Positions 2,270 through 64,000 are shown, counted from the stretch's first letter. The stretch is 64,000 bases of DNA from Candidatus Omnitrophota bacterium (GCA_015233675.1 JADFXH010000005.1:16964-80963), one strand, 5' to 3'. The notes: generated by a model not told the origin, from the letters alone. Translations and numbers: made by a program.

Positions 2270-2284
2270 GAGGAGGAAAAGATT

Positions 2285-2608: not shown

Positions 2609-2619
2609 GGGGGTTTAAG

Positions 2620-2975: not shown

Positions 2976-3037
2976 AAGGGCGTTGGCCCGACCTAATCAA
3001 TGGAAAGGCTAGTGGAATTATATGAAAGGATATGGTC

Positions 3038-3454: not shown

Positions 3455-3469
3455 GAAGGAAGAATAAAG

Positions 3470-3829: not shown

Positions 3830-3841
3830 GGGATAAAGTTT

Positions 3842-8506: not shown

Positions 8507-8576
8507 CTGAATGCCTGCTTTTGTTAAGAAGTGGGCACGTGATTGAGGATGCAATAGTATAAACAGGAATTAAAAT

Positions 8577-11213: not shown

Positions 11214-11234
11214 TTTGAATATTGGAGATGTCGA

Positions 11235-11576
11235 ATGAGTAGGTCAGACCGTTATCTTAAAGCCTTCGCCATCGTCGAATTTGTGGTGTTGTTTGTCATT
11301 ATCATTTCGGCATTTTTGATAATGAGAAATTATATTCAGCGCGGGATTTATGGCAAATTGGCAAAGACAGGACAAAGCTTTGCCTATGGGCGCCAGTTTG
11401 ATCCACAAAAGACGATTGAATGCGGTTTTGATCCCCAATCAAATACATGGTTTGACCGCAATTGCTTTGAATATTATAAAGTTAACAATAAGTGCAATGG
11501 CAACCCTGATTGTGAAGAGAGCATTATAAATGGCAGCCTATGTTCTTCAAGCGGCTGTATTCAAACCAGCAACTAA
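11235..11576 (+). CDS. Prepilin-like protein (113 aa) with Cys-rich C-terminus
   Basis: SD TGGAGA upstream. LKA-FAIVEF-VVLFVIIISAFLIM is prepilin-like. NYIQRGIYGKL is related to the Y[LV]KRGIQGR motif of paralogs 4 and 8. Confidence 0.6.
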   Translation: MSRSDRYLKAFAIVEFVVLFVIIISAFLIMRNYIQRGIYGKLAKTGQSFAYGRQFDPQKTIECGFDPQSNTWFDRNCFEYYKVNNKCNGNPDCEESIINGSLCSSSGCIQTSN

Positions 11577-11627
11577 TAAACAGCCGCTTTGATTTTATTG
11601 TCAAATTTTTTCTAACTAGTAAGTTTT

Positions 11628-12503: not shown

Positions 12504-12507
12504 AGCA

Positions 12508-13419: not shown

Positions 13420-13454
13420 ACTATAGCCATACAGGTCATTTTTAAGAAGATTAT

Positions 13455-13480
13455 GTCATTCCCGCGAAAGCGGGAATCCA
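13455..13480 (+). repeat. 26-nt palindromic REP-like element, copy 2 (GTCATTCCCGCGAAAGCGGGAATCCA); plausible intrinsic terminator of the tad operon
   Basis: Same element as 1122-1147. It has a 7-bp GC-rich stem and a GAAA loop, is followed by TTTTTATATT, and lies 36 nt after the tadC stop. Confidence 0.65.
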
Positions 13481-13523
13481 TTTTTATATTACGCTTCATT
13501 TCAGCTAAAGCCCAGATCTAGTT

Positions 13524-13656
13524 AATTTCCACTCTAAAACAATGTCCATTCTAATTTGTGTTAAATATAATAAGCAGAAGTATTGTCCATTCTGAAAAAC
13601 AAATAAAAAAATTTCCAATATAATTCAATTTCCACTCAAAAAATGTCCATTCTGAT
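13524..13656 (+). promoter_or_regulatory. Three direct copies of TGTCCATTCT (two within a longer AATTTCCACTC-A4/5-ATGTCCATTCT-[AG]AT unit) in the tadC to giant-gene spacer
   Basis: Core copies lie at 13543-13552, 13584-13593 and 13644-13653. The long units lie at 13524-13555 and 13627-13656. This is a candidate operator array or remnant of a small repeat element; no function is shown. Confidence 0.35.
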
Positions 13657-13689
13657 AAAATTTTATGTAAAATGAGATTTTCTTATTCT

Positions 13690-13757
13690 CCTCACCATTG
13701 ATGGGGGAGGTAAGGTGAGGGGGGGGGAATTCGTAGGGGCCGACCTTGTGTCGGCCC
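13690..13757 (+). repeat. Two adjacent hairpin elements separated by a G9 tract
   Basis: CCTCACC (13690-13696) pairs with GGTGAGG (13714-13720). A G9 run lies at 13719-13727. GGGCCGAC (13737-13744) pairs with GTCGGCCC (13750-13757) with a 5-nt loop. No T-run follows either hairpin. Confidence 0.6.
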
Positions 13758-14087
13758 GATAAAAAACAATCAAAAATTGTCACCCAATATTAAGCTTCAG
13801 GAAATTATAAAACTAAAAGTGGAGTAAAAATCTTATCAAACATCAATTTATTAATAAAAAAAGCGCATACAAATTTATTTATAAAAGATTGTGGAGTAAA
13901 AAATCCAAAAAACGATAATTTAATGATTGAAAAATTCAAAACCCACCTCTAATTAATTTTAATATAGAATATAGTTTATAAAATAGAGAAAATTGCACAT
14001 TTATTTATATTTCTTTATTTTTGTTTTAACACAAACATAACTTTAATATTTATAATATGTTATAAATGTAAAATAATTTCCAAAAAC

Positions 14088-14115
14088 TTGCTAATCGTAA
14101 AATATATGGTATACT
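14088..14115 (+). promoter_or_regulatory. Candidate sigma70-type promoter of the giant gene (TTGCTA, 16-nt spacer, TGg-TATACT extended -10)
   Basis: TTGCTA at 14088-14093; TG at 14107-14108; TATACT at 14110-14115. It lies in a very AT-rich spacer, ~40 nt upstream of ATG 14156. The -10 region is nearly identical to the flp promoter candidate. Confidence 0.4.
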
Positions 14116-14155
14116 CCAATTGTCGACGACAACATGGAACCAGAATACAAAAAAC

Positions 14156-17100
14156 ATGAGCCAAAATTTGGAAAACACAGCTGAATTTCCTGATCAGGAA
14201 CAAAATGTTCCGCAAGCCCAGGACAACGCTGTGAATTCTTTTGTTTCGGCCCCTCAAACTCCCGCATCAGACGCCAACCCCTTTGTAAGCCGTTTCAACC
14301 AGTGGATAAAGATCATCGCCATTATAGTTTTATCCACCTTTATACCGGACCAAATCAGCTGGGCATTTGGCTATAATCCGGCAGTGCTTTACAAAAATTT
14401 ACCGATGTACACCATGCAAAATGCGGACATGCCTTTGCCAAAGCCTGCTATGCAGGTAGCCGGAAGTGTTGAATATTTGCTCAAGCAAATTCAAGACAAG
14501 CCAAAGCTTCGTTTGGAATTAAATTTAGACCAGAGATCTTCTCATTCCCTTGAAATCGACACCAAAACTGTTTTTAATTCAATAAAGATCAAACAAATCA
14601 CACAGTGGCTTAATTCGCCGGATCTTAATGTCCTTAATTGCGGTGTATATGCTTTAAAGAATATTTTAGAATCCCAAGGCATTAAGCGTTCTTTGTCTGA
14701 AATCGCTGTGATGACTTTGTCAGTGGACATCATGGCGGATATCATTAAAATCGGTGAGCCGAAATTAAAAACAACCCTTTTTGCAATTAATAAAACCGCT
14801 AAAGCGCTGGGGTTAGATTATGAAAGCTTAAAGCTTTCTCCTTTAGATACTCTGAATTTAAAAACCCCATTTATCGCGCATTTTAAAAATGAACATTTTG
14901 TCACGGTTCAAAAAGTACTTGGCGGGAAGGTATATTATACCGACCTTGATTATCCCCGCATAGTTGACCAGCAGGATTTCCTGAATAATTCCGACGGCAT
15001 CGTCTTTGCCCAACCCCCTTCTTTATCATCCTCTCAAGCGATACCCGAAGCCCTGCAAGCCTTTGTCTGGGGCGACAAATGGCGCGACAAGAGCAGCTCT
15101 TTGCCCGGGTTTATGACCAGCGCCCAAATTAACTTTCAGATTATCATGGCGATAGTTACAGTTTTTCTGCCGGTCAAGGGCGGTATTGTTCTGGCCGATT
15201 TTAGCTTTCAATTAGGCCAATTCATGGGGTCTCTGGGAAATATTTGTGTATTGGAAAAGAAATGCAGTCAGGACACAGCTTTTATTTTATCTCACGCATT
15301 GACGGCTGCCTTTTCAGCATTTGAGGGAACTTTAAGCAATGGGGGCACTTGGAGCGCCGCATGGTCCTCCTTTGGAGACGGCCTTATCTTTGGTTCCGTT
15401 AATGCCGTTGTGGATTTGGAAATCGCCAAAGTGGTTAATAATGCGTTTTGTCCCGCCAGCGCAAATCCTTGCAGCGATACTAATCAAATTTTGTCCCAAT
15501 TAGTTAGCACGATTGCAGACTCTGTAGCTGATAAAGTTGTCGATCAGGGGGTTGCCAGTGTTTCGGACCAACTTTTTCATACTGATCTAACTGAGTTTTT
15601 AAATGGACCATCGCCGGATGAAGCTAAAAAGATGGTTGAAAAGGATAATCAAGCTGTTAAAGCCGATGAGCAAACCTATCAAGCCGATCAGCCAACAGTT
15701 GATGGTCAGCCGCAAACAGTTGATGAACAGCAGAAAACAGTTGACGCCGAGGAGCAAACAGCGGATGCTTTGCAGAAAACAGTTGATACAGAACAGGCTG
15801 ATTTAACTAAGGATCCGAACAACACCGAACTTCAGAGCAAACTTAAAGTCGCCCAAGACAATCTTAACGCTATTAACCACAAGCTTGATAACGACACAGA
15901 TAAACTCATTTCCGCCACAGACGATCTTAGGCAACTTCAAGCTGACGAGGCAAAACGTAATCTCGACAAGACCTACCTTGATAATCCAAAAAATTTCAAT
16001 GATGCATTGCATAAAATAATGATCAAATCGCTTCCTTTTATTGTTAGCCAGCTAGCAGAGGCGGCGGCGAGGTTCATCGCATATAAGGAGTTCAATGTCA
16101 AAGCCACGGACGGCCTTTCCAATGCTATCGGTCTCGGGGCCAGCATGATCGCTAACACCGCTTTTTCTGACTCAAAGTTCTATACAAAAGAGTTTAAGGA
16201 TACTTTTCCTAATACTCCTAATCAAGCACAAGACATGACGGATTCTTTTAGGCGTGCGATCATCGCTTTTGGGTTGGGGATGCTGTCAAATAGCGCGATC
16301 GGAAAATACGACGAAACTAAAGCCAAAGATGATCCGTCTTACGCTCATGAGTATAGTTATGACCAGGCTGAATTTCAGACTCTGGTCTTGTTGGGTTCCA
16401 GTCTTTTGTCTGATATGATATTAGTGAGTTTGCCTCCAAGTGGAGAAAGTACACAAACAAGCAGGGTAGGATTCTGGCCCGCGTTTCAGTCAATATGGAA
16501 TGGGGAGGCCAGTTCTTCCTCAGGGGAATACCAAAGAGATGGCAAAATACCGGTGCAGGAAATTCCAGCAGGAAGTTCCCCATTTGTGATTCCGGATTTT
16601 GCCGAAAGTTTAGGAGGCAAGCCCCTTTTAGCTGCTTATTTTAGAAATGGATCATGGGGAGGGGCTGAGAATTTTATAGATTGGTCAAATACCCAATCTG
16701 AAATGATTGGTTTTACTGCCGATAGCGCCGCTTCTGCGGATACGATGTGGACGCAGATGAAGAAGAACAATAAGACGAACAATAAGACGAACATTGGTCC
16801 TGCCCAACGCACTATCGGCGGTCTGATCACCTTCGGAATAGTCACCCCTGCGGTTTCCAACAGCACATTGCAGGACCAGTTCCTTCTTTCCATGCTTCAA
16901 TCGCATATGATAGGGAATATCGGTATCGATCCCGGCTATATTGCCAGCCAGGCGCAAGAGGCCAATATCACAAGTATTAGTAATTTAGGATATATTACGG
17001 AGTATGCATATGCAAAATTGTTTAATACCAAAATTAATACCGCCGCGCTTAATGCTGTGAAGAAGATAACGGGAACCTTTCAAGTTCAAGCTGCTAAGGC

Positions 17101-20100: not shown

Positions 20101-23100
20101 AAACGGCAAAGATAATCCGCTTATTACTTATAGGCCTATCGCCGCACTCTCATGCCCTGCAGCAGTCTCAAAGGGTTTGCTCGATGCCCTTGACAATGCT
20201 GATAAAGCAATAACTACGGGTGTTGCTAAGCTAGAAAAAGCCACCTATGCGTACAACATAGCCCTTGCGAACAATACAAGTGATCCCTCTGACGTTAATA
20301 AAGCGGCTCTCAAAACTGCCCAGGACAATCTCGGCCAGGCCAATGAGGATATCTCCAAAGCTAATAAAGGACATGATAGGGCCCTCTCCGACATTGCGAA
20401 CACTGTCCAGACCTCTGCCTCTAACCAGTCCGCGCTGCCTGACGATGTTCGTGCTGCCATTACCAACGTTAATGACGCCTACATTAAGGCCAACGCTGCA
20501 GGCAGTCTCAATGCGGCACAGCCTTCTGAGAAGAATGCCCAAGCCGCCAAAGACGCTGACGGGAAGTTCAGCGATGCGGAGAAGGCTTATGACAAGGCTC
20601 TTGCCGCTCACCAGCGTCCTCTGAACGTAGGCTTTAGTCCCGATGGCACTACTGTTGTGACAAGCGGCCAGCAACGGGCCAATGTTGAGATTTCTGATTT
20701 TAATTTAACTAATGCCGGGTTGTCAGGGGACTTTAGTTATGTACGTATGATTAATAAAACGGGAAACCCCGTGCTAACTTTCGGAGTACAAGAGGGAAAT
20801 GGTGTCATTCAGGCGACAGGCCCAGAAAACTATCCTAATCCCAAGCTGCCCACCATAATTCAGTTTAACGAAAATGGGGTGCTTGATAAAAACTGGAGGG
20901 AAATTGCTTTTGATAACAAAGACATGCATTCAGTTGTACAGGTAAAAGATGCGCACACAGGGCTTACGGTAGACATGCTGATGAACCTTCGATATTTAGC
21001 ATATGGCGACAAGGGGCCTATTGGAATCAAATTATCTAATAACAGGACGATCAGGGACGCTTTTGGAGGGCAAGGAACAATTACAGCAGCGAATATTAAT
21101 GACGGCTCATTAAGGTTTAATGTTGATTCTCAAAATTTAATTACAGGAAAAGGGATGATTTCGGAGGGACAATTCTTTAAGGAAGGCGATATTTTAAAGG
21201 AAAATTTGGTGGGATCTGATGGGAAAATTATAGGGAATAAATATCAAGCAGTCACAGCGAAGATGGTGGATGAATTCAACAGCCAAAAGACTCCTTCTGC
21301 TGCACCGAAGACAGAGGATATTATAAAGGAAAATAACCTTACCATAGCTTCAGAGGAAGGACATTTTGTTAACCAAGGGATGAGCCAGTACACGGTTGAT
21401 ATTAATAGCTCAGGCAACGGATCAGCGACGCAATATTATGGGAATACGCTGTTGACCAATAATACAGGAAAGGGATTGCCTTTATTTGACTTGGTGAGAA
21501 AAGGCAGCAGCGACCCCATAGGTACCGGGTGGCTGGAAGGGAACCTATTTCATTTAAACAAGAACCAAGCAATAGATACGCCTGAAGGGGAAAAGGAGAG
21601 TAAACTCGGCAATATGTTATTAATGGCGAATGGCAGCAACACGTTTAAGGCGGTAGAAGTAGCGAAGTTAGCAGATGAAGTTTTGCCTGTTTTGACACGA
21701 AAATTGACAAAAGCAGAGACCATAGGTGGGAAGAAGTATAATGCCGATGATACAGTATATGAAAGTCAAAAGTTAACAAAAGACATAACTATAGGGAAGA
21801 ATACGTACCATGCCGGGGAGGACATAGTAGTTACACAACAAATGCATGATGATTTTTTGTCTAGTGACCAAGGCAGGCAGATGATACAGATGGCTGAGGA
21901 TTTGACATTACTGGATGTGAATTCTCAGGGCAAGATTCTGGGCATAGGTTTTGGTAAAGATGGTAATGGAAAATATTTACCAGTTCAATATTCCACAGGT
22001 GGCTCGGCAATAATACAAAATCCGGAATACCCTGTGCTCCCTATTGATAAGGAAGGCAAATTGGAAGGGCAATTGAAACTGACCGTAAAGACCCCAGAAG
22101 GAACGAGCATCCCATTGCTGGTTAGCCAAAGGAGTGAGAACCAGGCTGTCTTAGAGGCAGTTCAAGCAAAGTATCCTGAAAAGGGAACGATTCCTAAGGG
22201 GGGGCTAACGATAGGGAAGGACACAATAGCAAAAGATATGATTAACAATCCGACGGAGGAAGCGGCAATGTTAACTTCAGTCGGTTCAAAAGATCAACCG
22301 TCCTTGCCCGTTAACAGCTCATCTGTTCAAGGAGCAAACAATACCCCTCCATTTATTAACGACATGTCTTCTCATAGCATATTTGATTTAGCGTCTGAGT
22401 TGTATACATCGCCTGCGTCCAGTGCCATTCAATCACCATTGCCAGCCAGCAACGCGTATACTCCTGTGGGGGACAATATTTTCCCATTCAACTCCTACCT
22501 CTCTTCGCCGATCGTTCCGTATAATCAATATAATCCATTTGGTCTAACATCTGCGCAATATACATCGCCTGCACCCAGCGCAACACAATCACCATTGCCG
22601 GTGTCAGATACAACTCCGGCGCTTACAGTAACTGATGGCTTGGGCAAATTGCAGGCCCAAGGGACAGCTCAGTATATGATCAATCTGGACAGCTTAGGGA
22701 ATGGGGCTGCATCGCAATTATATGATAATAATACTCATTTGATCAACAATACAACGTATGATTTGAACGTATTTGATGTTATAAAGAATGATCATACACG
22801 AGTGGCAACAGAAACATTGGAAGGCAATACATTAAACAAGAAGAACGAATTTTATTTTAACCAAAACCAGGCAGTAGCGGCGCCAAAGGGCTTAACTCAA
22901 GAGCAGCTTGGGCATTTGGGAAACTGGGCGTTGGCAGGCGTAGGCACAAATACATTTGAACTACTTGAGACCTTGAAATTAGCGGACACAGTTTTAGCTA
23001 CTGGAAAAATACAAGGATTGCCCGATGCAGGCGTACAATTAGCCATGACATATACGGCGAATACAAAACTGGAAGAAACTCTGGATAAGGCTCATCAGCA

Positions 23101-26100
23101 GGGAATGATACTGAAAGATGATCTGACCATAACGAAGACTTTTAAAAATGGCGAAACATTGACGAAACAGGAATATGACGCTTTAATAAATAATCCTAAA
23201 ACAAATCGGCAAATGGTACAAATGGCTGAGAAGGCCACATTCTTGAGGGGAAATTCACAGGGACAGATCTTGAACATAGATCTGGCTAAGGAGAAAGGGT
23301 CAGATGGTAAGGATCATTTGTTGCCGATTCAATATTCCACAGGAGCTACGGCTCCCATAACAGAGACTTTAAAGGATGGGCAGGTGAAATTGGTTGCGAA
23401 GGGAGTTGATTTGCCAGTGGGAGCAGGGGTAATGAATGTGAATGAATATGTCGGGGCAAAGATTCGATCAGCGCATCATGTAGGTGACAGCATTCCTGAG
23501 GGGGGGATAAAAGAAGGCGAGACAATATTGATTGAACCTGGAACAGATCACCATAAGCTTCATGAAAAAGATTTGGATACTATGGAACAGGCGATGCGTA
23601 AAGCAATGGGGGGAAGTGAGCAACCTGCTTCGAAAAATATTTCACCTTCAGCCAAAAAGGGGGCCTCAAGGACTGTAGATCAGATACCTGAGTTTAAAGT
23701 AACCGGCATCTGGGACGATTTAAAAGGCAGCGGACAAGCGCAGTATATGCTTAATTTGGATAGCACAGGCAATGGAACAGCATCGCAGTTATATGATTCT
23801 AACACCCATTTGAACAATTCGACGCCGTTTAATTTGAATATATTTGATGTGATTGATAAAAACAATAAAGTTATAGCCACAGACACATTAGAGGGTAATA
23901 CATTAAATGGGAGGAACAATTTTTATTTTAATGACAACCAGTCTTTACGTACACCTAAAGGATTAAAGTCGGAAACATTAGGAGAATCGGTAATGGTGGC
24001 GACGAAGGCGGGCAAGTGGTTTAATACGATAGAGACAATAAAGTTGGTAGATACAATTTTGCCTATTGGGGGGCAGTTGGCAAAAGCTATGGACATAGGA
24101 GGGAAGACGTATAAGAAGAACACTATAATTACGAAAGAGATGCAGGATGCTTATTTGAGAACTCCTGAAGGCGCAAAAATGGCGCAGTTGGCGCAAATGG
24201 CGGAGAGAACAAAACTATTAAGGGTAGATTCGGCAGGCAGAATAAAGAACATGGATTTTTATGATGATATTGTGACAGACTCATTGGGAGATGCAGGGAA
24301 GATAACCTTTCATGATACAAGCACCGGTCAATTGGCCTTAGTTGTAAAATCGAATCAGTTCGTGGCGGGTCTAGGACAGGATCAAGACAAAGCGCTTGAG
24401 TGGCAAGTTCCAGGTGGAAAAGACAAGCAGCATCCATTGTCCGGAGAGGTGAAAGTCAATGGCAAGACAACGAAATATCAATCGGGAGAAAAATTCACAG
24501 ATGGGGACATAATCAATGCAATCATGAAGAAGGAACACGGGCGGATTGATAATTCTAAAGATTTACCGCTGCCGAACCATACGTTAAAACTTATTATGGG
24601 TCAAGACGGAATCGTTCGCGGACAAGGAGGATCGCAGTACCAGATCACTTTAGATAGCACAGGCGTTGGAACCGCATCACAAATTTATCACGATACCCAT
24701 TTAAGATTAGCCCAAGACATATCCAATGTCCAGTTAATAGAGGTGGGTAATAAAGATACTAATCTACTAGCAGAAAGGACATTAAAAGGGCATGGCGGGC
24801 ATGATTTTTATTTAGATCAAGATGGGGCATTATACAGGCCGGATGCTCTTAAAGGCCAAGAACTATTAGGGAGCATGGCAACGTTGGGCGTGGGAAAAAA
24901 CAGTTTTACCCTTGTAGAAACCGGAACTCTGGCCAAGCATATGGGGATAAATATGTTCTCCGAGCAGGCGACATACTTGGATACGGATGCGGACAAGAAT
25001 ATCCTAGGGGCAAAACTTCTTAAGGGGTCGGTTATTAAAGATTTGTTTGGTGGAAGAGGAACGCTGCAAAGCTATGGCTTGTCAGATGGGAAACTGCATA
25101 TTGATATAGTAAACGCGAAAGGTTTTGCAGCTCTTCAAGGTGTCCAGCCCGATGCAGAGAAGAATGCATCTTCCTCTGATAAGGAAAAGGGAAAATCAGC
25201 AGGACAGACAACATCTAATTTGCCTTCTTTAATATTAAGTTCGGGCAGAAACGGAATCATAAAAGAAAATGGGTATGTGCGGCTCATTGCGTCTAATATG
25301 AGCAGTTCGGGGGCAGGTTCAGTCATGCAAGATTATGCAAACACACACTTGATATTTGCAGGACGGTTAAGCAGTCTGCCGTTGTTTGATATAGATCGTA
25401 AAGGAAATGAAATAGGAATAGGAACGTTGATAGGAAAGAATTTTTATTTAGATAAAAATGGAGAAATATTTGCTCCAAAAGGAAAATCGGCAGGGCAATT
25501 AGGGAAAGAGAATTTTCGTGCAACGGGAGCGTACGGGATATCGATAGTGCCTACAAAAATACTACTCAGCGGGAAATCTATTGAAACGCTGTTGAAAGCA
25601 AACAGCATCACGATTGATTCTGCGGGAAACGTGAAGGCCGTAAATTTTGGCAAGCACTTGGAAGCTATATATCCGTCCGGTCGTGAAAGAATAAGCAGCT
25701 ATTATGTGAAAGATGGCGTGATTCATATTAACGCGAAAACTGAGGGGAAACATGGAGGTGAGGCAGGAAGAGGAAGCATGGTAGTCGAGACCATTCCTTC
25801 TCTAGAAGAAGAATGGGGGTTGGGTGACCCATTTCATCCGATTCCAAAGTCTCAAGCAGAGCCATTGGACATCAATGATCTTTCAGGCCTGAATGCTTTT
25901 TCAGATCCATTGGGAGGGGGCAGCCTATTAAATCCATCTGGTCGGAGAGCTAAAAAAGCAGCCCTTCCATCATGGGGTCTGAATGATACAACAGGTACAG
26001 CAGGGGCATGGGGGCAGGGGAGTGTATTAAATACATCGCCTTTGGCTTGGAATTTTTTCAATCAAGGGACAGCTCAACCAGTGTCAGAAGGAAATGGTGA

Positions 26101-29100
26101 CGCAACAGAAAGACACCCGATGCCGGGTGAGACATTAAAGCTTTTTCCGGATAAGCATGGGGATATGGTTAATGTGGGAGACACGCAGAATATAATCCAG
26201 GTTAGTCCTTCACGTTACGCATCAGAAACACAAGATTACAGTAATACACTATTGATACTCCCCGACCAGCGAGAAACACCTTTAATAGATCTGAAAGATC
26301 GAGAGGGCCATACTTTAGTAACACAATATTATGGAGGAGACACGCATTATTACTTTAATTCAAGCCAGGAATTGTATGTTCCGGATGTAGTTAGGGAAAA
26401 CAAACCAACATACAAGGATGTCTCAGCACAAACGATGACAAGAGATGATTGGGCAAAAATGTTTCACGATAACTCCATTAGTCATAGAGGCGTTACGACG
26501 TTTGATTGGTTAATGTCTGAAGGGTTTTTCGAAGAAACAAGCGGATCAAAAGGCACTCCGAAGCCTCTAACGCCTGACAAAATAAAACTTCTACATAGCA
26601 TGCAGGTATCTGTTGACAATGTAGTGCGTAATTATTTACTCGATCCCACGGTGCCTAAAAATCAACTACAATCATACCTTGCTGTAACACTCAATATTCC
26701 AAGGGCCTTGGCCATTTTGCAAGCGACAGTTGCAAAGAAAAATGTTGCGATTTATCCTTATCCAGCGCATTTATCAGGATACATGGAAATGGGAACGCTA
26801 AAGGGTTCTGCAAAAGATTTTCCGATGTTTCAAAAGGCGGATCTTGTGGAATATTCGGATGATAATGGGATATATAAGGGAGCTAATATTCTCGAAGAGC
26901 AGGCGACGTATATGAAAGTTGATGCGTATGGGAATATATTAGGGGCAAAATTTGATTTAAGCAAAGGTATCGTAGACAGGTTTGGTGGATATGAGGCTAT
27001 GATAGCTCAGCCAACCCTTGAAAATGGGCAGGTGAACATTCAAGCGCAAACAGTACATGGCAAGTTAGGTTTAGCTTCTCTTATGGCAGACATTATAGTA
27101 CCAGACAAACCTGGCGGCAGCGGCCCACAATCTCCGACGGACCATGTTGTGTACTTTGTAAAAGACGGGAATTTAATTAGGAATGGTAGTGAAGCTGTTG
27201 TTGGCGGGGAAGATAAGCCAAGCCAGACTCAGTATGTAATAACATCTACAAGTACCAGACTCGTTGGTACTGCTAAAGGGTCGTACAAAGGAACGCTGGT
27301 TAAAAATTGGTCAGGGCTTCCGGATTTTGCGGGTGGGGAAGATGTGAAGTTTACAAATGTTCCAGATGACAAAACATCACCAGGTATTATTTTGCATAAA
27401 AATGCGGAAGTTGCGGTGGATCAAAATGGGCAATTGGTTACAGAAAAGCCTTTAGGGGTGGTTGTTGGGCATATTTTTAATAAAGCTAATAAAGCATGGA
27501 ATTTCGGAGACCCTCAGGAGATAGGAGAACTTAGCTTGGCGGGAAATAGTCTGATTATGGTCAAGACTAATGGGGAGCTCAAACCTTTTGTTGTTAATTT
27601 AAATGAAGGAACAGTGACTTCGCTAAAGAGGTTTAAAGGTGAAGGCACAATAGATGATGGGGTGTTTTATGGGTGGAATGGTTTTACTGTAGAGGGAGTA
27701 GATAAAAATAAAATTTATTTTGTCGTTCAAGGGCCAACAGGAAAGCCAAGGCCAATAGCGTATCATTCTGACGGTAGTCCTGCTACTTTGGGATTTGACC
27801 CGTCATGGGGGAAACGAGCAGGCACGGCTGTCGGCGGGTTTGTAGTAGATGTTGCAAAAGATCTTACAAAAGTTGCCAGGAATGGAGCCGGAGAAATAAC
27901 TGGAATATTGGGTGGTTTTGAGTTCCCTAATTCTTTCATGGGTAATCTTACGGATAATATAATTTCGTATGGGGCACAATCTGGCTGGGGAACTGATTTG
28001 CGAGGCATAACGGCATCTCCTGATGGGTTGAAGGCATTTGAAGAAGACAATGCAATTGGTGCGGTAAAGGCAGGGCTTGATGCAACTATGGTATATGGAG
28101 CAGTTACAGGATTAGCAAGAATAGGGGCACAATTAACAGTGCGGGCAGGATTAGAAATAGCAGGGAAGGAGGCAGGAGAGCAAATATTGAAGAGAACTCT
28201 TTATCAAAATATTGGTAAATATATTTTGGAAAGAGTTGGGGCTCGTCTTGGGGCTCGTGTGATAGGGTTTATGGCAATTTCAGCAGCATCAGGAACAGTT
28301 GGTGGTTTTGGTAATGTGGCGCTTCATCACGGCAACTGGGATTATTTTCTCCCAGGGGCAGAGGCAACGGCTATGATACCCGGAGAAATATATTTGGCAA
28401 GAAACCCAGCAACCTCTGTTTTTGGACAATTTGTCCAATCTGGAACTCTTTGGACAGCCTCGGGAAATTCGCTGTCTTTAATGCTGAATAATGAACCATT
28501 AACACCGGAACAAAATGTACATTTATTCTTAAATGCGGGTGTTTCAAGCATGGGCGGGAGCATTTTAAAAACGGAACTGGGGATGTTGAAGGTGGGAGAG
28601 GACGTAGGAACGTTAAGTCGTATAGCACGCGTCAGGGCAATTTTACTCCCAGTATTATTAAGAGGCCTTTCCCGCACAGCCCAGAGTATGCTTTTTATGG
28701 GAAGATTAGATACGCTAGCCAATCATGTTATGGTAGCGAGGGATAGAGTTCCAGACCCAACTGGCATGTTCTATATCCAGAAAATGAATGTTGGAGAGTT
28801 TACTGCTAAGAGTTTTCTTGGATGGAGTTTTACTGATAAGAATGGGAATTTTAGCTTGGAAGGGCATTATAATCCCTTTGCAGGGGCTTCATTTGGCGTC
28901 CTTTTTGCTGGAGCAGGAGGGGCGGCATCGTTGTTTTTTAAATCTTTTGAGAAGGCAAAAATAGCTGTTGAAGGGTATTCTAAAGCCGTTGAAGAGATTA
29001 AAAATGCAGCGACAGACGGTAAAACAATAAGTGAGAGCGGTCAATTAATAAGTGAGACTGGAGAAGTGTTGAAAGAAGCACCAAGGTTGCCCTCAATAGG

Positions 29101-50100: not shown

Positions 50101-53100
50101 AGCCTACTCAGAAATTAGCCTGCTTGCCCGGAACTTTGCGAGAAATGGGAGGACTTTGACCCAAGAGGGGGCGGAGATTGCTATTTGTACAGTTGAGCCG
50201 TATAAAAGAGGCAACCCGTCAAGGAAAGAAATTAGAAGCGTAATGAATTATTTTAAATCTCTGGAAGGCAAGAGTGCTTCAGAGGAGGAAAATGTCGTTG
50301 CTTACCGCGGTCAATTGACAGACGAAGAGCAGTCTAAGTTGAAGGAAGTCCTGGAATCGTCTCAAAAGGCTGTAAAATTTGCCCCCACAAAGGTCCAACA
50401 GGCCATTGAAATCATTGGTGACAGGGTTGTGTATGTTCAAAATGTCGGCAAATTCAGGGTCAGTCAACTTATGGTGGGCAAAGAAGTAATCTATATTCAG
50501 ACCTACAACCATTCACCGCCTAACGCGACTATTATAGGCAATAACATTTATATATTTGCCGCGGATGAAAACATAATAAGTCCGCAATTATTAGCCAGAA
50601 TGTTCATCCACGAAGTGGTAGAAGTTGAACTATATTATCTAAGATTAGGGATCCCCGCAGAATTTATCCACCAATTAGCTCAAAAAGCCCAAGAGGTTAT
50701 TAAATACGGCTTTGTTCAACAGATCATTGAGAGATACCATAACTTTATAACTTGGTTCACTGCGAATAAACAGCCAGCTATTGTTCCTGAAGGGGCACAA
50801 GTGCCGTCTAAGAAGAACGGTCCGCCATGGAGTCCGGGTCAGGGCCGTCAGCCTGTTACTGTGCCGCCGGCACCATTTATGCCAACCGCGCCAAATGGGG
50901 AGCCTGATAAGACCCCGCCTCCTGGCGGCGGCTCAACCGGCAAGACAGCTCCATCGGCATACGTTTCACCGGCTCCTTCTCCGGATACTTTTGCATTTGA
51001 ACAGACATTTTCAGGTAATGAAGGTTTAGGTAAAGATGGTTCTAATTTTGAAAGAGGAAGACAAACCGGACCGCCGATTGAAGAACTTCAAGCGAGTCGC
51101 GGTGACGGCGGCCGTACTTTCTCTGTACTCGCTTTCCTCAAGCGAGCATACAGAGGAAATGAAGGAAGAGAGGAAAATAGTAAAACTGTTGGTAATAAAG
51201 AAGTTGTAGCAAATAGTACCGTTTTTGTTGGAATGCAGGAAGGTGGCTTAGCGCGAGCTCTGTCCGCCGAAGAAGTAGGTAGTGTTGAAGTCATCAGTTC
51301 AATAGTAAGAAATAAAGGTAGTAGAAGCACAGTAGAAGACAGCAATGCAGTAGACAGTAAGGTAGTAGGTAGTAATACAGTAAGCGGTAATGTAATAGTA
51401 GCAAGCAACACTGAAGTTGGTAGTAATGCAGTTGGTAGTTCAAGTAATGGTATTACCACCTTCGTGGTGAACGCGGGTGCTATAAGCGAAGCAGTAAGAA
51501 GCATAGTTGGAAGAAGTGCAGAAGAAAGCAATACCCGTTCTCGTACCGAAGCTGGTACGGATGAAGTTAGAAGTACAGTTGTTGAAGTTAGCGAATCTAG
51601 CTGGAATGGCGAAGCTGTAAGAGGTGTGAGAAGTGCGTCCACTAATACAGCAGAAACCATAGAAAGTGTAAGCGCCAAAGGTGTGCGAGGTTCAGGAAGT
51701 GTGAGAACTCAGCACAGAAATACCCGTTCTCGTACCGTAACAATAGGTACGCATAAAGATAGTACAGTTGTGGCTGGATCCACGAGAACATTCGGGAATG
51801 GCCGCAATAGCATTGAATATAGCGAATCTAGCCGAATTGGTTCAGTTGCAGAAGGAACCATAGAAGGCATAAGCGCCCAAGGTGTGCGAGGTTCAGGAAG
51901 TGTGAGAACCCGGCACAATGATGTTGTAAAGGGTGGCGACGTAACCGCTCAAATATATAGCAATAAGGATAGATTTACCAAGGTTTCAGGATTGCGTCTG
52001 CAGATAATCGCAGCGATTCGGAAGGTTCTCGGAGTCCGAAAAGCAAGTGATAACTCGAAGGCGCAAGAAGTGTTTGTCCAAACAAGCACTGCCGAAGCCG
52101 CAGTTGTTCCGCTCGCCCGAAGCGAGGCAGGAAATAACGGTGTAAATCGTGTTGCCTCCTTCTCAAGAATGACAAAGAGGATCCTTACATTTACCGCTAT
52201 ATTTGTTATCATGGCGGTTAGCATCATACCTTTAGTTGCCGCACCTGCCCAAGCGCAAATGACGCCGGCCCCTGTCATGATTTCAGCAACAATGGCAGTA
52301 CCGGCTAATCAGACTGTTGCGCCACAAGCAACTGTACCGGCAGTCACAACAACAAACGTTACTCAGCCTACCACTGATAAACAGGTGGCAACTGCTTCAA
52401 CAACACCTGCCCCTGCAGTGACCAAGGTCGCAAATCTCGTCAAAGCCTTCACAGCAACAGAAGGGCAAACAACTGCGATATTCGGCAAGACCGAAGACGG
52501 CAAATATTTCAAGGCAACGCTCCAGAATTGGAGTCCTGTAGTTGCGGAGGATGTTCCTGCGGACGTTAAACAGGCTATTGACATCGCAACAGCCCAGCAT
52601 CCGCTGGTATTGTGGGTCAACAGCAAAGACGTCACAAGTCCTGATTATCAAGCGAATTATCAGACCATTTTGAACAATGTCCGCCAGGCTTTAGGGAACA
52701 CTAATATTGTTACCCTGTGTGATACAGCCAAGCCGGAAAACACGATTCAATCGACAAGCCCGCTTACCTTCAGCCCGGTGACAGTCAGTGACAGGCACAT
52801 TTTACGTGAAGGCAAACCATACATTATCCATGGCATTACTCTATCAACCGCACATACCGGAGAAGGCCGCCGGGATGTCCGCTATACGCTTGATTACATC
52901 GGAGGGGAAAACACCTTACGTCAGATGAAGGAGATGGGAGTTAACAGTATCCGCATGTATTATCCTCCGAGCAAAGATCTTCTTGATGCTTTAAGCCGCA
53001 ATGGCATGACCGTGACAGTGGGAATCCCGAATTTTGATGACCGCAATGTTCCGGCTGATGAAAAGATCGATATCAGCAGCGGCAGTTATAAACAGTACAT

Positions 53101-56100
53101 TGATCAAAACAAGAACAATCCCGCGATTCTAATGTGGGAAATTGGTAACGAATATAACTATCATCCTGAATGGTTCAAGGATAGCGGTAAGAGCTGGAAG
53201 GAGATTCTAAAAGACACAGTACATGAAGTGCGGGCAATTGATATGAATCATCCGATAACGACAGCCGAGGGAGTAGAACAGGGCGGCTTAAAGGCGATTG
53301 CGGGCAAAGACGGGGATGGGATTAGCGCGGCAGGGTTTAACGTATATAGGGGAGAAGGGCTTGGTAATTTGAGTCAAGAGTGGCAGAAAGCTTCTGTCAA
53401 GCCGGTGTATTTATCTGAATTTGGGGTCAATTACAGCGCAGATGCCGATGTACAGGCAAGGGGCATCAAGATGCTCTGGCAGGATATCCAAAAGGGCATT
53501 GATGAAGGGGTTCTTTCCGGCGGATATGCGATGACATGGAAGAGTGAAGACTGGAAAGACGGCGCGGCAGAAAAGAACCTTGGAGTTATTGATGCCAATG
53601 GAGCACCGAAACAAGCCTATTATGTACTTCAGCAGCTCTGGAACCCGTCGAAAGTTCCAGCTCCGGCCACAAACATCGTACCTGCCAAGGCTGATCCTAA
53701 AGCAGAACCTAAGACAGGTCTTCCTTCAGTGCCGAAAACGACTCCGACATTGGTACCGGCGAATCACAGCTCTGGTAACGATCCATTGAAGGAGCAGCTT
53801 AATAAAATGAACAACAGCCTGCAGGCGGCTAAGGAAGGCATAGATAGCGCGAATAAGAGCCTTAAGGAAATCAACATCCAAATAGCGGATCATTCTAACG
53901 ACTGGCAAATCAGAGATCAAAACAATGATGTACGTTACGGTCTGGCCCTGATGGGGATCAATCTCCAGCAATCAATTGGTCAGGCGTATGCAGACAATCT
54001 TAATTCATCCAACATGAGTGATGAGGACAAATCCGGAGTATTCGCAGGACTTAGCGTCGGGTCAGTTCCTGACAACGGGTTAAGCGTTAAGCTTTGGGGA
54101 CCATTGTCTGTTAATGCAACAGTTCAAAACTCGCAGGCAGGCCCGCTTAACATGGCACAAACGCTGCTTAATACAAAAGAGGTATTTAAAGCGCAGGGAG
54201 TCAATGCAGTGATGGGTGGGATCAATTATGTCAAGACGATCACTGATATAAACAATATTTTTGTAACCCAGCATGTACGCATGAGTGAAGCAGGGGCGTT
54301 TGTAATAAAGAATGGTAAGCAGACAGTAATAGCGTTGGATGCAATTAAGGGCAATCCGATAGCAGTGGACGATCATGGCAAGGCTGTATTTAAGGCAGGG
54401 CGAGACGGCAAATTAGTACATGTTCCTGTGATAGAAAAACTATATAGCGGCATTGAGGCAATTACAGGGAAGATATTTGGTAACCATAGCAAGCAAGTAC
54501 CGTACAGCAAGCAGAAGTCGGGGTATATTCCTGGCAGGGTTGAAAGCGCCTTTGTAATGCAGGGCAGCAACAACACAAATCCATATATTAAGTATACGAT
54601 CGAACGTGGAGAACAAGGTTATTTTGTCAATGATCAAGGCTCATATGTGCAGAAAGGAACAACGGGCGCGATTGCGGCAGAGCAATTTGTGTTTGGCTAC
54701 AAATATGATATGACGAAGCTGATGGCGAGCAACGGGAAAGACGGGAAAACCGCCATATTTATGAGCCATCGATTTGCCAATACAGAAGAAGAGGAAGTGA
54801 TCAAGAACAACCAAAAGGATCTGTGGCTTGAGCCGGGGGCTATTTATTCGATACCCTCCAAGTATGATTTGAAGATGGCGGCGAAGAACTGGCCTGATTT
54901 GACAGGGAAGGACAACAATGCGTTGCTTATTCATCCGATTACGAAGGAAGTGCTGAAGGTTTATGCCGGTGACAAACTGCCGAATACTGCATACAGGAAT
55001 CAGCCGGTAGTAGTCAATGGAGCGATGAATCCTGAAAGTCTGATGGGAGTGCCTGTAGACAGCAGTTACGGGCCGGTAAAAGATGCTCAGGGCAAGCCGA
55101 TGGTCTGGGGCGGCACCTTTGCGAGATCAGTAATTGCGCAAGTGGGGGCCAATGGAGAAGTGATTGCGGCGGGGTTGATTAAGTCTGAGGTAGTTAAGAG
55201 CAGTTCAGATATGCTAACAATTCCTACTTTAGACCAAAAAGAAAGCATCGTGCGAAAGGTAGTTGCTGATGCCGGCGGAGACGAGCTAGAAGCGAATAAG
55301 GTATGGAATATTTTGCAAGAGAACCAGGAGCAGCCGGTATTCCCGCAGGTGATTTATACGCCGAGCGGCATCAACCGTTATTCATGGTCTATCTTACCTT
55401 TATCTAATAATGAAACCAATGATACCGGCACGGTGATGGTTTTTAAGAAAAACGGCAATGCGTATGAATTTTCCAAATTTAGCAGCAACTTTACGGTTAA
55501 GCCGGAGTCCAAGCCATTAACGTCAAGTGTAGTTTTGAGTATGCCGGTCAGCGATGGTATAGCGGCGGTAAAGACGGTATGTGGGCACAATTTTAATACC
55601 ATCACACTTCCTGCCAAATTCCCGGTGGTCCAAAATCCCGATAAGGATAGTACAGATAATATCGGTATATTTATACCGAAGCCGGATAAAGTCATGTATG
55701 CCTTTATCACGTTTAAGGATTATACACAGGCTATATATAGTGAAGCGCAAGCTCTTAAATTGCATATTTATGATTTACCGGATAAGGGAGAGGTAAAATC
55801 TTCAGTTGCGTACAAATCAGCTGATTATAGCTGGAGCCACACTAATGAGCCGGCCCATAATGTAGAAGGTCAGATGCCGGTACAGCTGGGTATTTATGAG
55901 GATCATACACCGGCGATAGTGGTATATACGCCGCGCATTACCAATCTCCAGAAGTATATGCAGGAGCATCAGAAGAGCGCAGTTGCAATCACGCCTGAGG
56001 GGGCAACTAAATATTTTGATAATGCGCCTTTGACGCATATGGACAAGGTAGAGCCGATGGCCTCGCCGGTATTTGGCAAAGCCGCAAGCGATCTGGCGTC

Positions 56101-59100: not shown

Positions 59101-62100
59101 CGGCCAAAAGGTATCTTTAGGCAGCGGCGAAACAATGATTATATTGCCGGGAGATACAGACAAAATAGGTCTTGGCCACAGCAGCTATCCTGTGGTCGTG
59201 GAGTTGACATATAAGGGGTTTTCAGAACAGATACCGGAACTTACACAATATATAAACGGAGTAAATGATGGCTTGTATGTTGCCAGGATCATGACTCCTG
59301 ACATGAAAAAGGGCACATTGGCGACTGCCGTGGCTCCCAAGGAGCTAGAAGAGTACCTGGCCCATAGCGAAGAAGATCTTGGTAAGATATCGCATTTTGA
59401 GCAAATAATAGTGCCAGTAGAAAAGTCAACAATTGCAGGTCTCGATTTAATGAACGTCAAGGGATCAGTTTTAAATCCTGATAATCCAAAGGGCATTTGG
59501 CAGGCAGTGGGGGGATCAACAACAAAAGTGCAGTTAAAACTGAACACCGACTTAGAGGGAATTCTCGCAAAGTACTCACAAGCAGATGCTCATAAAATCA
59601 TGTCTATGGTGCAGCAGTCCTATGGTTATGTGGCAGTTTATCCTGACGGACGACACGTTTCCGTTGAGTTTGCCGGAAAAGCCGGATTTGATGCATTAGG
59701 TTCTGCAATAAATGGTAATTGGTCCACAGTACCGATGAAGAATGGGACGGTATATGCCACGGAAGAAGAATTGATGAAGCTTTACAATGAAGGCAAGATA
59801 AAGTCTGTTGATGAAAAAGGCAATGGAAAATGGAAACTGATGACTGATCAGGGGGCGGTAGGGATATCGAAGGAGTTAATTAAAGAAGGGAAAGATTTTA
59901 AAGCAGGGACAGTTAAAAACGGATTTTACTTTAGGATCCTCAAACCCGGCCTTACAAGGGGCAAGTTAAACACCTATGTGAATGTTAATGGCTTAAGCCG
60001 GTATATGGCACGTAATCCCGCAGGGCTTAAAGGCGCGCATCTGGAGCAGTATACAGTGAAGCTAAATGGCAAAGCAATACCTGACGGCAAGGGCGGGTTC
60101 CAGCAAGCCTATCATATCGTCGGTATTTCTGAAAAGCCGGTGGCGGTGGAATTTGCCGGGCCAAAGGGTAAAGTTGGGTATGATGCGTTATGGGATATAA
60201 CCAAAGATTTATTTACTGTGAAGACAAGCGAAGGGACGATTTATATAAGCGCAAAAGAAATTGTCAACGGTCTTCATAACGGGACGTATAAATTTGCTCC
60301 TGTCAAAGGCAAGAAAGAACTGGTCTTAGAGACAAGGGATGGGATCAAAGTAGGCTGGCCCAGCAAGAAGAACGGGGATTCTAATTATCAGTATGTTTTG
60401 AGAACTGCCAACAACACTCCTATTAACACATTGTTTAGCATTCCTAACAAATTAGGCGGTGTGGATTTCATCACTGAGAAACAAGTTATCAATGGTATTG
60501 AGCATAATTTATTCTGGTTCGGAGAGAAGAATGCGCAGGGTAAACGTCCGTTGATGACGAAGGTAGTGATTAATGGGAAGACCAGGGAAATAAAAGTTGG
60601 CTGGCCGGCGGCAGGGGCTAATTTCTCGAGGGCCGGACGTGCGCAGTTGTCAGCATTCCTTAATAGTCATGTCATGTATGTTGCCGAGAATGGGCAGGCT
60701 AGGAGCAGGTTTATGACTCTCGCGGGGATAGCAAAGGATACAACGCATTGGGGAACGATACGCCACAATTTGGCAACACTGTTTAGCATGGATGTGAATG
60801 GTAAAACAGTGGCCTGGTATGGGATGAGCGAGGTCCCCGGAGTTTTCGAAAAAACAGAAAACGTAACAAATGTTAAGAGCAACACATTCATTTTGGATAT
60901 GCGCAACGGTCATGTTATTAAGACCCCGTCAAGCACATCCGTGAAGTCAGATTTATACTTTGTAAATAAGAAATTGATGGCGTATACGATCCGTGTGAAC
61001 AACCTGTTGAATGGGCAAGAATGGCAGGAGCGCCGTGTGATTGTTCCTCATGTTGGGGAACGCGTAAAGATCAAGATCGCCGATGGCCTTAAGACTATGT
61101 ATGAGTACGACGGATTCGGCCCGCTCGTTCCAACGCAGGTCACGACAACGTTAAATAACGACAATAACCCTGAGAAGATTTCGATATCAAATACCACTGC
61201 CGTGACATTGTTAGGCGTGCCGAATGACAAGCTGGCGGCAGTCAATAAATTTATCGAACAACTGAATAATTCGAAGAATATAAGCGTTGAGTCTGCGGCC
61301 AAGATGCTGGAGAAAGATCTAAAGGCTGTTAAGGGCAGTGATATGACGGGCACGTCGATGGCTCATGGCAGCGATTTTGATTTTAAGGCATACGCTAACA
61401 AGGTTCAAGGGCAGATTCAAGCCAAGTTCGGTCCGGACAATAGCAAGAAGGCCGAGGGCATCATCAATATCGTTCTGGGCAGGGTCTATAGCATGGCGCA
61501 GGATGTGAGGATCACGACAGATAATACTAATTATAAGACAGGGGTCAAGTGGAGCGAGACCAGGAATCTTCAGGGCCGGATATTAACAGCGCAATCCAGC
61601 GAGGGCGAGGTAACGGTTAATAATTATGAAGGGGTGATTGGCAAGGTATTGAACTTGGCGACATCTTCTGAAACCAAAGCTAACGGCAAATTGATTGACG
61701 AAAGTCATCTTGTTAGAGCTGACGGCACGCCCATCTCGAGCATTAATGATATCAATCTTCAGCGATCAGGCAATATATTTGGTTCGGACGGCAGCATTCG
61801 CTATCAGGGGATTAAACATTATTACGATGACAGTGACCTTCGTGTAAATTATCAAGGGGTTCAAAGCGGTGTAGGCCATGTAAAAGTTGCGCAGACAGGG
61901 CATACAGAGAATGGGAAGTTTGTAGCTACGCATAAAGTATACAGCTTCTATGATATGAGCAATCTTGGAATATACAATCTGGCCGAGTGGACAGTTTCAA
62001 CGACAATTATTAACGGGCGCGAAACCATCGACTCATATTCTAACGAAACCACCATAAAGAATGGCGGCATCTCAATAGGGACTAAACAAGGCATTGCTGA

Positions 62101-64000: not shown

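Follow-up and report, generated by a model that had tools for sequence, protein, structure and literature searches.

Giant genes of the Omnitrophota encode proteins of up to 85,804 amino acids (aa), and the threshold applied in their description was >30,000 aa (West-Roberts et al., 2023; 10.1101/2023.11.21.568195). The proteins carry an N-terminal C39 (or S8) peptidase domain near a signal peptide, many transmembrane (TM) helices, glycosyl hydrolases and, in most though not all cases, a divergent SecA_DEAD domain; upstream lies a locus resembling those for type II secretion systems (T2SS) or type IV pili, with class III signal peptides, and downstream lie PilZ genes and genes for carbohydrate binding or transport (West-Roberts et al., 2023). 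The same study raised the possible cleavage of giant proteins. A function in contact and cell-wall degradation has been proposed for the family, on the basis of genomics and of a protein detected by proteomics in Velamenicoccus archaeovorus. A later survey catalogued 5,761 proteins of at least 10,000 aa (10 kAA; a count of 916 is also given for such Omnitrophota proteins), with a maximum length of 147,155 aa. Sequence singletons make up about 80%, and one architecture cluster, of 24 proteins, has C39 only (Nielsen and Lui, 2026; 10.64898/2026.06.07.730766). In that survey, T2SS/Tad genes and family 2 glycoside hydrolases (GH2) flank 13 of the 14 top giants, the median number of TM helices in proteins of at least 10 kAA is 16, and 46% are TM-only, with their bulk predicted to be cytoplasmic. 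The present analysis concerns a 64,000-nucleotide (nt) stretch of DNA (JADFXH010000005.1:16964-80963; hereafter the window, with positions counted from its first nucleotide), most of which is occupied by a single open reading frame (ORF), the giant ORF, that is compared here with these proteins.

The literature on the family is largely computational, and its experimental support is the proteomic detection of the V. archaeovorus protein. The giant protein of V. archaeovorus LiM is reportedly 39,678 aa long, a figure attributed to work by Kizina and colleagues from 2022.

An Unbroken Open Reading Frame of at Least 16,615 Codons

Computational re-translation of the + strand, in the frame whose codons start at 2 mod 3, gave a stop-free run of 16,643 codons (49,929 nt) from 14072 to 64000. 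The run begins directly after a TAA at 14069–14071, and the runner-up, with all six frames considered, measures 2.6 kb. The first ATG of the open frame lies at 14156, from which 16,615 codons are read up to the window end (14156–64000); the ORF runs off the window at 64000, and this number is a lower bound. The visible product has a mass of 1.82 MDa and an isoelectric point of 5.9. The ATG at 14156 is taken as the start because homologues in an alignment begin with MSQNLEN or MSENLDN, as the giant ORF does, and because nucleotide conservation with related loci sets in ∼50–100 nt 5′ of it (at 14051–14104). The original prediction, made from the sequence by a model, had described a frame free of stops from the TAA to position 64000, with at least 16,615 codons and a product above roughly 1.8 MDa, and each of these figures was reproduced.

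The other two + frames contain 1,114 and 1,533 stops across the same 50 kb, and the probability of an accidental open frame of this length is ∼1e-383. In every 3-kb bin the fraction of purine at codon position 1 is 0.63–0.72 and GC content is higher at position 1 than at position 2. Codon usage in each fifth of the ORF correlates with that of the whole (r = 0.93–0.96) and with that of the upstream genes (r = 0.59–0.83), whereas out-of-frame controls give values of ∼0; tetranucleotide composition is even along the ORF. The 3-nt periodicity and the codon usage, both singled out earlier as a check on the frame, speak for a uniform coding signal. The giant ORF was absent from the ORF list that accompanied the window, in which the 14–64 kb region is represented by antisense ORFs alone, none longer than 246 aa. 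This absence is explained by the ORF lister, which leaves out ORFs running off the source, in agreement with the earlier suggestion that a real giant ORF had been dropped for want of a stop. The single unbroken giant ORF is a genuine protein-coding gene.

Two side observations concern the same region. The longest antisense ORF inside the giant gene (45433–46173, − strand) starts with ATG, encodes 246 aa and is found across from the P-loop module described below; it most likely arises as a side effect of the purine richness of the coding strand. Between 24001 and 38000 the GC skew of the coding strand is 0.19–0.28 per 2-kb bin, compared with ∼0.1 at both ends of the ORF, and the AT skew is positive. 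The markedly purine-rich coding strand in this interval could reflect amino-acid composition, or a bias of strand or transcription.

A Conserved Head with a C39 Peptidase between Two Transmembrane Helices

A hydropathy scan places a conserved N-terminal hydrophobic helix, TM1, at aa 53–71 (14312–14368, + strand). Its sequence includes IIAIIVLSTFIPDQISWAF and is followed by a GYNP motif; the F, P, Q, S and W positions of this segment (F.P.Q.SWAF.YNP) are invariant in an alignment of 12 sequences, as is a further motif, FVWG.KW. The peptidase C39 domain (Pfam PF03412) occupies aa 161–278 (14636–14989, + strand), with E = 2.9e-8 and 34.1 bits against a gathering cutoff of 22. Its catalytic residues are Cys162 (14639–14641, in LNCGVYAL), His247 (14894–14896, in EHFVTV) and Asp263 (14942–14944), all three invariant across the 12 aligned sequences; the Cys/His/Asp triad is intact. 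The C39-like motif set recognized in the original prediction is hence a domain above the Pfam gathering score with its catalytic residues in place. The same hydropathy scan places a second helix, TM2, at aa 329–347 (15140–15196, + strand), and the C39 domain sits between the two helices.

Cysteine is rare in the giant ORF, with 13 among 16,615 residues (0.08%; aa 162, 364, 370, 432, 439, 2000, 6320, 8784, 8996, 12011, 12855, 13809 and 16440). Five of the 13 fall within the first 440 residues, namely the catalytic C162 and two conserved pairs behind TM2, C364 with C370 (ICV.KG.CS) and C432 with C439 (CP......CSD); two cysteines after TM2 are invariant in the 12-sequence alignment. The two conserved pairs could form disulfides or a metal site.

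Relatives, Synteny, and Origin

A search with aa 1–1100 returned 15 proteins, all of which carry C39, the best with 43%–62% identity. Nine have names, eight of them from Candidatus Omnitrophica/Omnitrophota (partial or C39-domain proteins) and one from Elusimicrobia. A degenerate-pattern scan for the head, run on one genome per GTDB species, showed that 104 species genomes encode the module, and 80 loci were kept. The titles of 52 of these name Omnitrophota or Omnitrophica (or Omnitrophus, Zapsychrus), 25 read “uncultured Planctomycetales,” which is the generic label of one large third-party annotation (TPA) “binchicken” project (L004, L009–L012, L016, and others), and the remaining three name Elusimicrobia, Caldithrix and an unclassified bacterium. 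The labels Planctomycetales, Elusimicrobia and Caldithrix look generic or mistaken, and do not look like a true occurrence beyond Omnitrophota.

No stop interrupts the C39-headed frame before the available DNA ends in 73 of the 80 loci, and at least 3,000 aa are visible in 43. The other seven relatives have a stop after 115–2,180 aa, counted from the match start. In six of them the stop is not the end of the coding region, and a further long stretch is open. This stretch is in another frame in five (L002, at 13741–13756; L038; L060; L068; and L079), overlapping the stop in four, and in the same frame in one (L004), where it resumes after a single in-frame stop at 2876–2878. Runs of N occur in L060, L068, and L079. 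Frameshifts or errors in sequencing are suggested by this pattern more than truly short genes are; the interrupted frames could be sequencing frameshifts, pseudogenisation or programmed recoding.

Over its first ∼1,000–4,000 residues the giant ORF is colinear with giant ORFs from the genomes of more than 100 Omnitrophota species. Colinear BLAST matches extend from aa 1 to ∼4,860, in blocks with unmatched stretches between them, and the closest relatives hold, according to Pfam, only C39 and one domain of unknown function in their first ∼3,900 aa. Further along, a 13.6-kb NCBI contig from a metagenome-assembled genome (MAG), here called P0016 (JADFWR010000070.1), consists of one ORF that is colinear in four blocks with aa 6,561–12,276. 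For the last 649 aa, scans of genome contigs and metagenome contigs gave no close relatives.

Upstream of the giant ORF lie two genes for T2SSF-domain inner-membrane platform proteins, TadB/TadC- or GspF-like (11628–12503 and 12508–13419, + strand; Pfam PF00482, E ∼3–5e-17). In tblastn searches of 83 related loci, TadB and TadC homologues were found directly upstream in 56 and 59, respectively, and the other five upstream proteins in 38–45; the best amino-acid identity is 83% for TadB and up to 93% for TadC. The gene order upstream of the C39-headed ORF is the same in L001 and L002 (NCBI Omnitrophota MAG, JGI contig). The head and the TadB/TadC homologues occur mainly in Omnitrophota MAGs, which points to an Omnitrophota origin of the window. 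No exact copy of the locus is present in the collections searched, and nucleotide identity to the closest species representatives is 70%–80%, in conserved parts only; the window would thus derive from an Omnitrophota species outside the GTDB representatives. The earlier suggestion that the gene might belong to the Omnitrophota giant-gene class is borne out by loci of Omnitrophota MAGs that are homologous and colinear with it and share its synteny. Conservation is strong in the head (TM, C39, TM and Cys motifs) and in the pilus operon, whereas the body has almost no relatives, which marks the head and the operon as the likely functional core.

A Glycosidase Domain behind a Signal-like Anchor

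Deep inside the protein, hydropathy and charge reveal a segment resembling a Sec signal peptide or signal anchor at aa 12,672–12,701 (52169–52258, + strand). Its sequence, MTKRILTFTAIFVIMAVSIIPLVAAPAQAQ, opens with a Met (MTKR); the n-region is basic, and the hydrophobic core leads to a motif of the AxA type (AAPAQAQ). The core (aa 12,676–12,697) is the strongest hydrophobic segment of the whole protein, and four Lys/Arg residues lie within the 15 residues before the anchor and none after it. No Shine-Dalgarno sequence was found upstream of the internal Met, and a separate translation start at this point is therefore not evidenced. The segment hints either that the giant ORF was built by fusing former genes for secreted proteins or that signal peptidase cuts the chain internally.

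Behind the anchor follows a linker rich in Thr, Pro, Ala and Val, and then a (β/α)8 glycoside hydrolase domain of clan GH-A at aa ∼12,875–13,165 (52778–53650, + strand), supported by Pfam and PDB matches. Pfam Glyco_hydro_2_C (PF02836) matches aa ∼12,875–13,097 with E = 3.1e-7 and 30.3 bits against a cutoff of 21. Matches of the giant ORF to PDB sequences are limited to this glycosidase and comprise the GH158 enzyme 9oro (E = 1.8e-9), GH2 β-galactosidases and glucuronidases, and a GH5 endoglucanase. The acid/base Glu12999 (53150–53152, WEIGNEY) aligns with the Asn-Glu motif of the clan and the nucleophile Glu13088 (53417–53419, YLSEFG) with the catalytic position, and the domain looks catalytically competent. 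The GH-A-like motifs noted in the original prediction thus correspond to a profile-supported domain with both catalytic glutamates. Since the glycosidase is contained in the giant ORF behind a signal-like anchor, it offers a small clonable module for probing the hypothesis of cell-wall degradation.

A P-Loop Module Not Assignable to SecA

A P-loop module was delineated at aa ∼10,300–10,880 (45053–46795, + strand) from its motif order and from conservation in one homologue. It opens with a Walker-A-like MGGGKST (aa 10,326–10,332; 45131–45151), followed by ILITVKDLEH, LYRGE..S.G.QI, ASGTV, GGRAIILGLL (GGRAxIxGLL), GSSRG(ISL) and LQRSRGV (LxRSRGV). The order recalls motifs I–VI of SecA and other superfamily 2 (SF2) NTPases, with which the Walker-A-like GxGKS/T loop is shared, and most motifs are kept in P0016. 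This contig was the one homologue recovered by an exhaustive HMMER search of 1.84 billion (1.84e9) representative proteins; word-indexed homology searches with aa 10,291–10,950 and with the two-sequence alignment gave zero matches, as did a scan of metagenomes with the module alignment.

Statistical similarity to SecA/SF2 NTPases was absent by every method tried. Pfam reported no SecA or helicase family on the module (E ≤ 10) or on P0016 (E ≤ 1), and tiled Pfam scans of the giant ORF did not detect SecA_DEAD (PF07517). A phmmer search with an approximate E. coli SecA sequence as the query gave E > 0.5; hhalign of the module against SecA gave a probability of 0.6%, and a hidden Markov model (HMM) of the module had no match in the PDB. 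An AlphaFold2 (AF2) model from the two-sequence alignment reached a mean predicted confidence (pLDDT) of 41.9, and the best Foldseek hit to it was not significant (E = 0.13), with SF2 helicases and AAA+ proteins mixed and SecA absent from the matches. The module also differs from SF2 NTPases in having no DExD Walker B, the corresponding motif reading YxGE. A SecA domain was accordingly rejected as an identification. Of the SecA/SF2-like set named in the original prediction, the Walker A and the SF2-like motif order stand, conserved as they are, while similarity to SecA or SF2 was found in none of the tests. What is left appears to be a conserved P-loop module that is not assignable to SecA, and a “SecA-like” label is not to be assumed for every giant.

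The internal anchor lies 1,800 residues downstream of the P-loop module, for which similarity to any Pfam or PDB family was not detectable. It is an improbable, speculative option that the module represents a previously unrecognized NTPase family acting as an in-cis motor, which together with this anchor would export the glycosidase-bearing C-terminal part. If true, the giant would carry its own complete “cis” device for secretion, unlike the divergent SecA domains of other giants.

Repeats, Dark Stretches, and Membrane Topology

Tiled Pfam scans recognized just two domains in the 16,615 residues, Peptidase_C39 and Glyco_hydro_2_C. About 97% of the protein is without a recognizable domain on these scans, in keeping with the earlier statement that most of it has no assignable function. 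By self-BLAST, 13% of the protein is internally repetitive. Six divergent super-repeats at aa 2393–4320 (21332–27115, + strand) were delineated by self-BLAST, iterative HMM searches and alignment; the units are 214–425 aa long and 23%–50% identical, each with a ∼120-aa core that looks β-rich, and the region is also present in the relative L016. An AF2 model of the repeat unit, with the six internal copies as the alignment, was unusable (pLDDT 41.1). Self-BLAST revealed a second repeat region at aa 8766–9294 (40451–42037, + strand; ∼40% identity between copies), and a third lies at aa 11,030–11,638 (47243–49069, + strand), with units of ∼135 aa that are 41%–61% identical. A weak two-copy repeat at aa 15,153–15,396 (59612–60343, + strand) rests on a single self-BLAST pair (E = 1e-4), the copies at aa 15,153–15,233 and 15,316–15,396 being ∼35% identical. 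At the nucleotide level, Tandem Repeats Finder reported two arrays only, each shorter than 100 nt.

TM helices were predicted by crude Kyte-Doolittle hydropathy only. Six to seven strong peaks were obtained (aa 53, 329, 12,676, 16,373, 16,420 and 16,442), among them three predicted TM helices near the window end at aa 16,373–16,460 (63272–63535, + strand), and weaker hydrophobic segments occur at aa 742, 5,034–5,258 and 10,191. From the positive-inside rule applied at the anchor, the glycosidase segment would lie outside the cytoplasm, and the stretch ahead of the anchor, with the P-loop module, inside it. The placement of the 12,300 residues between TM2 and the anchor is uncertain, because the weak segments leave the parity of crossings open.

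Proposed Role and Alternative Readings

The giant is quite probably a species-specific, fast-evolving, C39-headed protein that ends a Tad/Flp-type (T2SS-like) pilus or secretion operon conserved throughout the phylum and that serves, anchored in the membrane, in contact with a host or prey and in polysaccharide hydrolysis. A few TM segments would insert it into the cytoplasmic membrane, with the P-loop module staying in the cytoplasm, ahead of the anchor at aa 12,672–12,701, and the glycosidase-bearing segment after the anchor exposed outside. The exposed segment and the neighboring pilus-like apparatus would then contact the host or prey cell and hydrolyze its surface polysaccharide. Cleavage at sites of the Gly-Gly type, in the giant chain itself or in a partner, is the probable task of the C39 domain, and the repeat regions are probably spacers or binding modules. 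Localization, substrate, processing and the link to the pilus are suggested here by analogy with the family literature.

Several points weigh against this proposal. With ∼97% of the protein domain-less and both AF2 attempts of low confidence, the functional model is built on two small domains and their context. About seven helices in 16.6 kAA, counted by crude hydropathy, fall below the median of 16 reported for proteins of at least 10 kAA. The topology follows from one charge-biased anchor, and the weak segments at aa 742, 5034–5258 and 10,191 could flip it; the conserved Cys pairs just after TM2 might place that region outside the cytoplasm. The SecA_DEAD domain of most described giants is not detectable in the giant ORF. 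The 3′ end lies outside the window, which puts beyond view both the full length and any PilZ/transport genes of the kind that usually follow in the family, and the locus is known from assembled sequence alone. We know of no member of the giant family with a demonstrated biochemical function.

Two other readings accept the gene as real. In one, which overlaps with the proposal above, formerly separate genes have been fused and the chain of more than 1.8 MDa is a polyprotein rather than the working unit, cut into many smaller proteins by its own C39 domain and/or by signal peptidase at internal signal-like segments. A C39 domain with an intact triad heads every relative, the internal Met segment is like a textbook Sec signal peptide with AxA, behind which come a linker and a GH domain that is complete in itself, and the architecture is a patchwork of unrelated modules that repeats little internally (13%); cleavage has also been raised for the described giants by West-Roberts et al. 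(2023). Against this, cleavage sites are not known, the internal Met lacks a Shine-Dalgarno sequence or any other sign of a former gene start, and the retention of more than 16,000 stop-free codons, likewise in the open frames of 73 of the 80 relatives, argues that translation as one chain matters. The polyprotein is thus a possible but tentative reading. The other places aa ∼350–12,670 inside the cell, as a mostly cytoplasmic, tethered scaffold, a machine of many modules in place of a surface adhesin or lysin, of which only short loops and the GH segment are outside. An NTPase-like P-loop module with a conserved Walker A makes sense only in the cytoplasm, one strong TM helix (aa 329–347) separates the head from 12,300 residues without strong hydrophobic segments, and the share of TM-only long proteins whose bulk is predicted to be cytoplasmic (46%; Nielsen and Lui, 2026) provides a precedent. 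The repeats, however, look β-rich and are rich in Thr, Asn and Gly as in adhesins, the Cys pairs after TM2 and the near-absence of Cys elsewhere fit exported proteins, and the adjoining pilus/secretion operon suggests a surface function, which leaves the scaffold possible though doubtful.

In principle, the ORF could have been created during metagenome assembly, through a chimeric join or the collapse of repeats; giant genes are hard to assemble, and the searched collections hold no independent copy of the window. But random junctions would almost never hold one frame for 16,643 codons (P ∼1e-383), tetranucleotide and codon usage are uniform, tandem repeats in the DNA are negligible and the protein repeats, at 23%–61% identity, are too divergent to collapse. 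The order of segments also recurs in independent assemblies (aa 1 to ∼4,860; P0016 for aa 6,561–12,276). On the unbroken frame, the uniform composition and this segment order, an assembly chimera was rejected, and an assembly artefact is very improbable. Still harder to credit is a giant of another class that is alike merely in size, such as a type-1-secreted RTX/Big-repeat adhesin or a megasynthase for nonribosomal peptides or polyketides (NRPS/PKS). Size alone speaks for it, along with the C39-like domains known in the ABC transporters of type I secretion systems (T1SS), whereas here C39 belongs to the giant protein itself, and the head and the synteny are specific to Omnitrophota loci. Both kinds of protein were rejected on tiled Pfam scans, which contained no RTX, Ig-like, cadherin or NRPS/PKS domains in the visible part. 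T1SS adhesins of the RTX/Big-repeat type are moreover built of tandem repeats, in contrast to the 13% internal repetition of the visible ORF, whose C terminus lies beyond the window.

The Upstream Operon and the Spacer

The remainder of the upstream operon (1390–11576, + strand) was annotated from N-terminal motifs, Pfam and synteny. It starts with nine + strand ORFs (1390–5928) whose N termini combine [KR][GA]-Q-x-x-x-E-Y with a hydrophobic helix. Eight are small pilin genes with Flp/class-III-like signals (1390–4159; 51, 62, 113, 107, 96, 140, 119 and 105 aa), and the ninth encodes a pilin-like protein of 589 aa (4159–5928). In the 96-aa ORF (2685–2975) the Flp motif is internal (HKGQSTVEY), and its true start is probably a later codon. 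After the pilins come a 126-aa ORF, a 768-aa protein with weak Big_7 similarity, an 878-aa protein, a 113-aa ORF and the two T2SSF genes. NCBIfam gave essentially no match on the upstream proteins, and no homologue of a prepilin peptidase, TadA/GspE ATPase, secretin, GspD or RcpC was recognized within the 64-kb window. At the 5′ edge of the window, a 331-aa ORF (16–1011, + strand) has weak similarity to HTH_32/IS630 transposases (E ∼1e-4, far below cutoffs). It may be a degraded mobile element beside the pilus/giant-gene locus; transposase-rich flanks have been reported at giant-gene loci (Nielsen and Lui, 2026).

The spacer ahead of the giant gene (13419–14155) is 737 nt long and AT-rich. It contains, in order, a terminator-like hairpin with a T-run (13458–13477), three copies of TGTCCATTCT (at ∼13544, 13584 and 13644), a G-rich tract followed by a GC hairpin (GGGGCCGACC...GTCGGCCC; ∼13715–13760), and two GTGGAGTAAAAA repeats (13819 and 13891). 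A promoter-like TTGCTA-16 nt-TATACT with a TG extension (14088–14115, + strand), recognized by its match to the consensus only, lies ∼40 nt upstream of the ATG. Conservation of the spacer with relatives is confined to its final ∼100 nt, where the promoter-like site falls; all these features may be regulatory sites. Rfam and tRNA scans of the window gave no match, with neither rRNA nor tRNA found.

Comparison with Known Systems

At the level of single domains, the head shares with the C39 domains of bacteriocin-processing ABC exporters (PCATs), and with the C39-like domain of HlyB, the papain-like fold family PF03412, in which Cys, His and Asp are conserved in the expected motifs (NCG...; EHFV...), as they are in the giant ORF. 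Unlike in PCATs and HlyB, the domain is not fused to an ABC transporter but heads a giant protein between two TM helices, and the pilins upstream have class-III sites of the type [KR][GA]|Q, not the Gly-Gly leaders found with PCATs. The glycosidase shares with clan GH-A members (the GH2 TIM barrel, GH158, GH5) the (β/α)8 domain, the Asn-Glu acid/base and a second Glu, the nucleophile, ∼90 residues on. It differs in that the match reaches only E = 1e-7 to 1e-9 and extends to several families of the clan, in having none of the sugar-binding and Ig-like accessory domains of GH2, and in being embedded 12,900 residues into a polypeptide.

Among whole proteins, the closest counterparts are the giants of West-Roberts et al. 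(2023). Shared with them are an unbroken ORF of tens of kb, an N-terminal C39 beside a TM helix, further TM helices, a glycosyl hydrolase and long unannotated stretches, as well as a preceding T2SS/Tad-like locus with GspF-type proteins, pilins with class III signals and an origin in Omnitrophota. The visible length of at least 16,615 aa stands against a threshold of >30,000 aa in that study and lies above the 10,000 aa used by Nielsen and Lui (2026). In contrast to most of those giants, SecA_DEAD was not detectable in the visible ORF by tiled Pfam, HMM searches or hhalign. The visible part also differs from the Archaeovorin type, in that it contains only C39 and one GH domain and no glycosyltransferases, methyltransferases, SAM-methylase, NUDIX or GGDEF domains, and from the Dockerin type, in that it has neither dockerin nor TSP3 repeats (no PF00404 or PF18884 matches).

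The “Peptidase C39” cluster of Nielsen and Lui (2026), whose proteins were compared with the present ORF by description and not by sequence identity, has in common with it C39 as almost the sole Pfam domain, a length of >10 kAA, near-singleton status, membrane anchoring, Tad/T2SS flanks and a GH2-type domain as the recurring glycosidase. The GH2-type TIM barrel is inside the present ORF, whereas the GH2 enzymes of the described loci are flanking genes. The visible part fits a C39-only, Pfam-dark architecture. The exceptional novelty implied by the original prediction does not hold, since thousands of proteins of at least 10,000 aa with the N-terminal C39 and the Tad/T2SS neighborhood have already been catalogued (West-Roberts et al., 2023; Nielsen and Lui, 2026). 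Apart from the SecA domain, the gene has every defining feature of the Omnitrophota giants that can be assessed in the window. The locus is one more, very divergent example of the known giant genes, and the current picture of these genes is unchanged by it.

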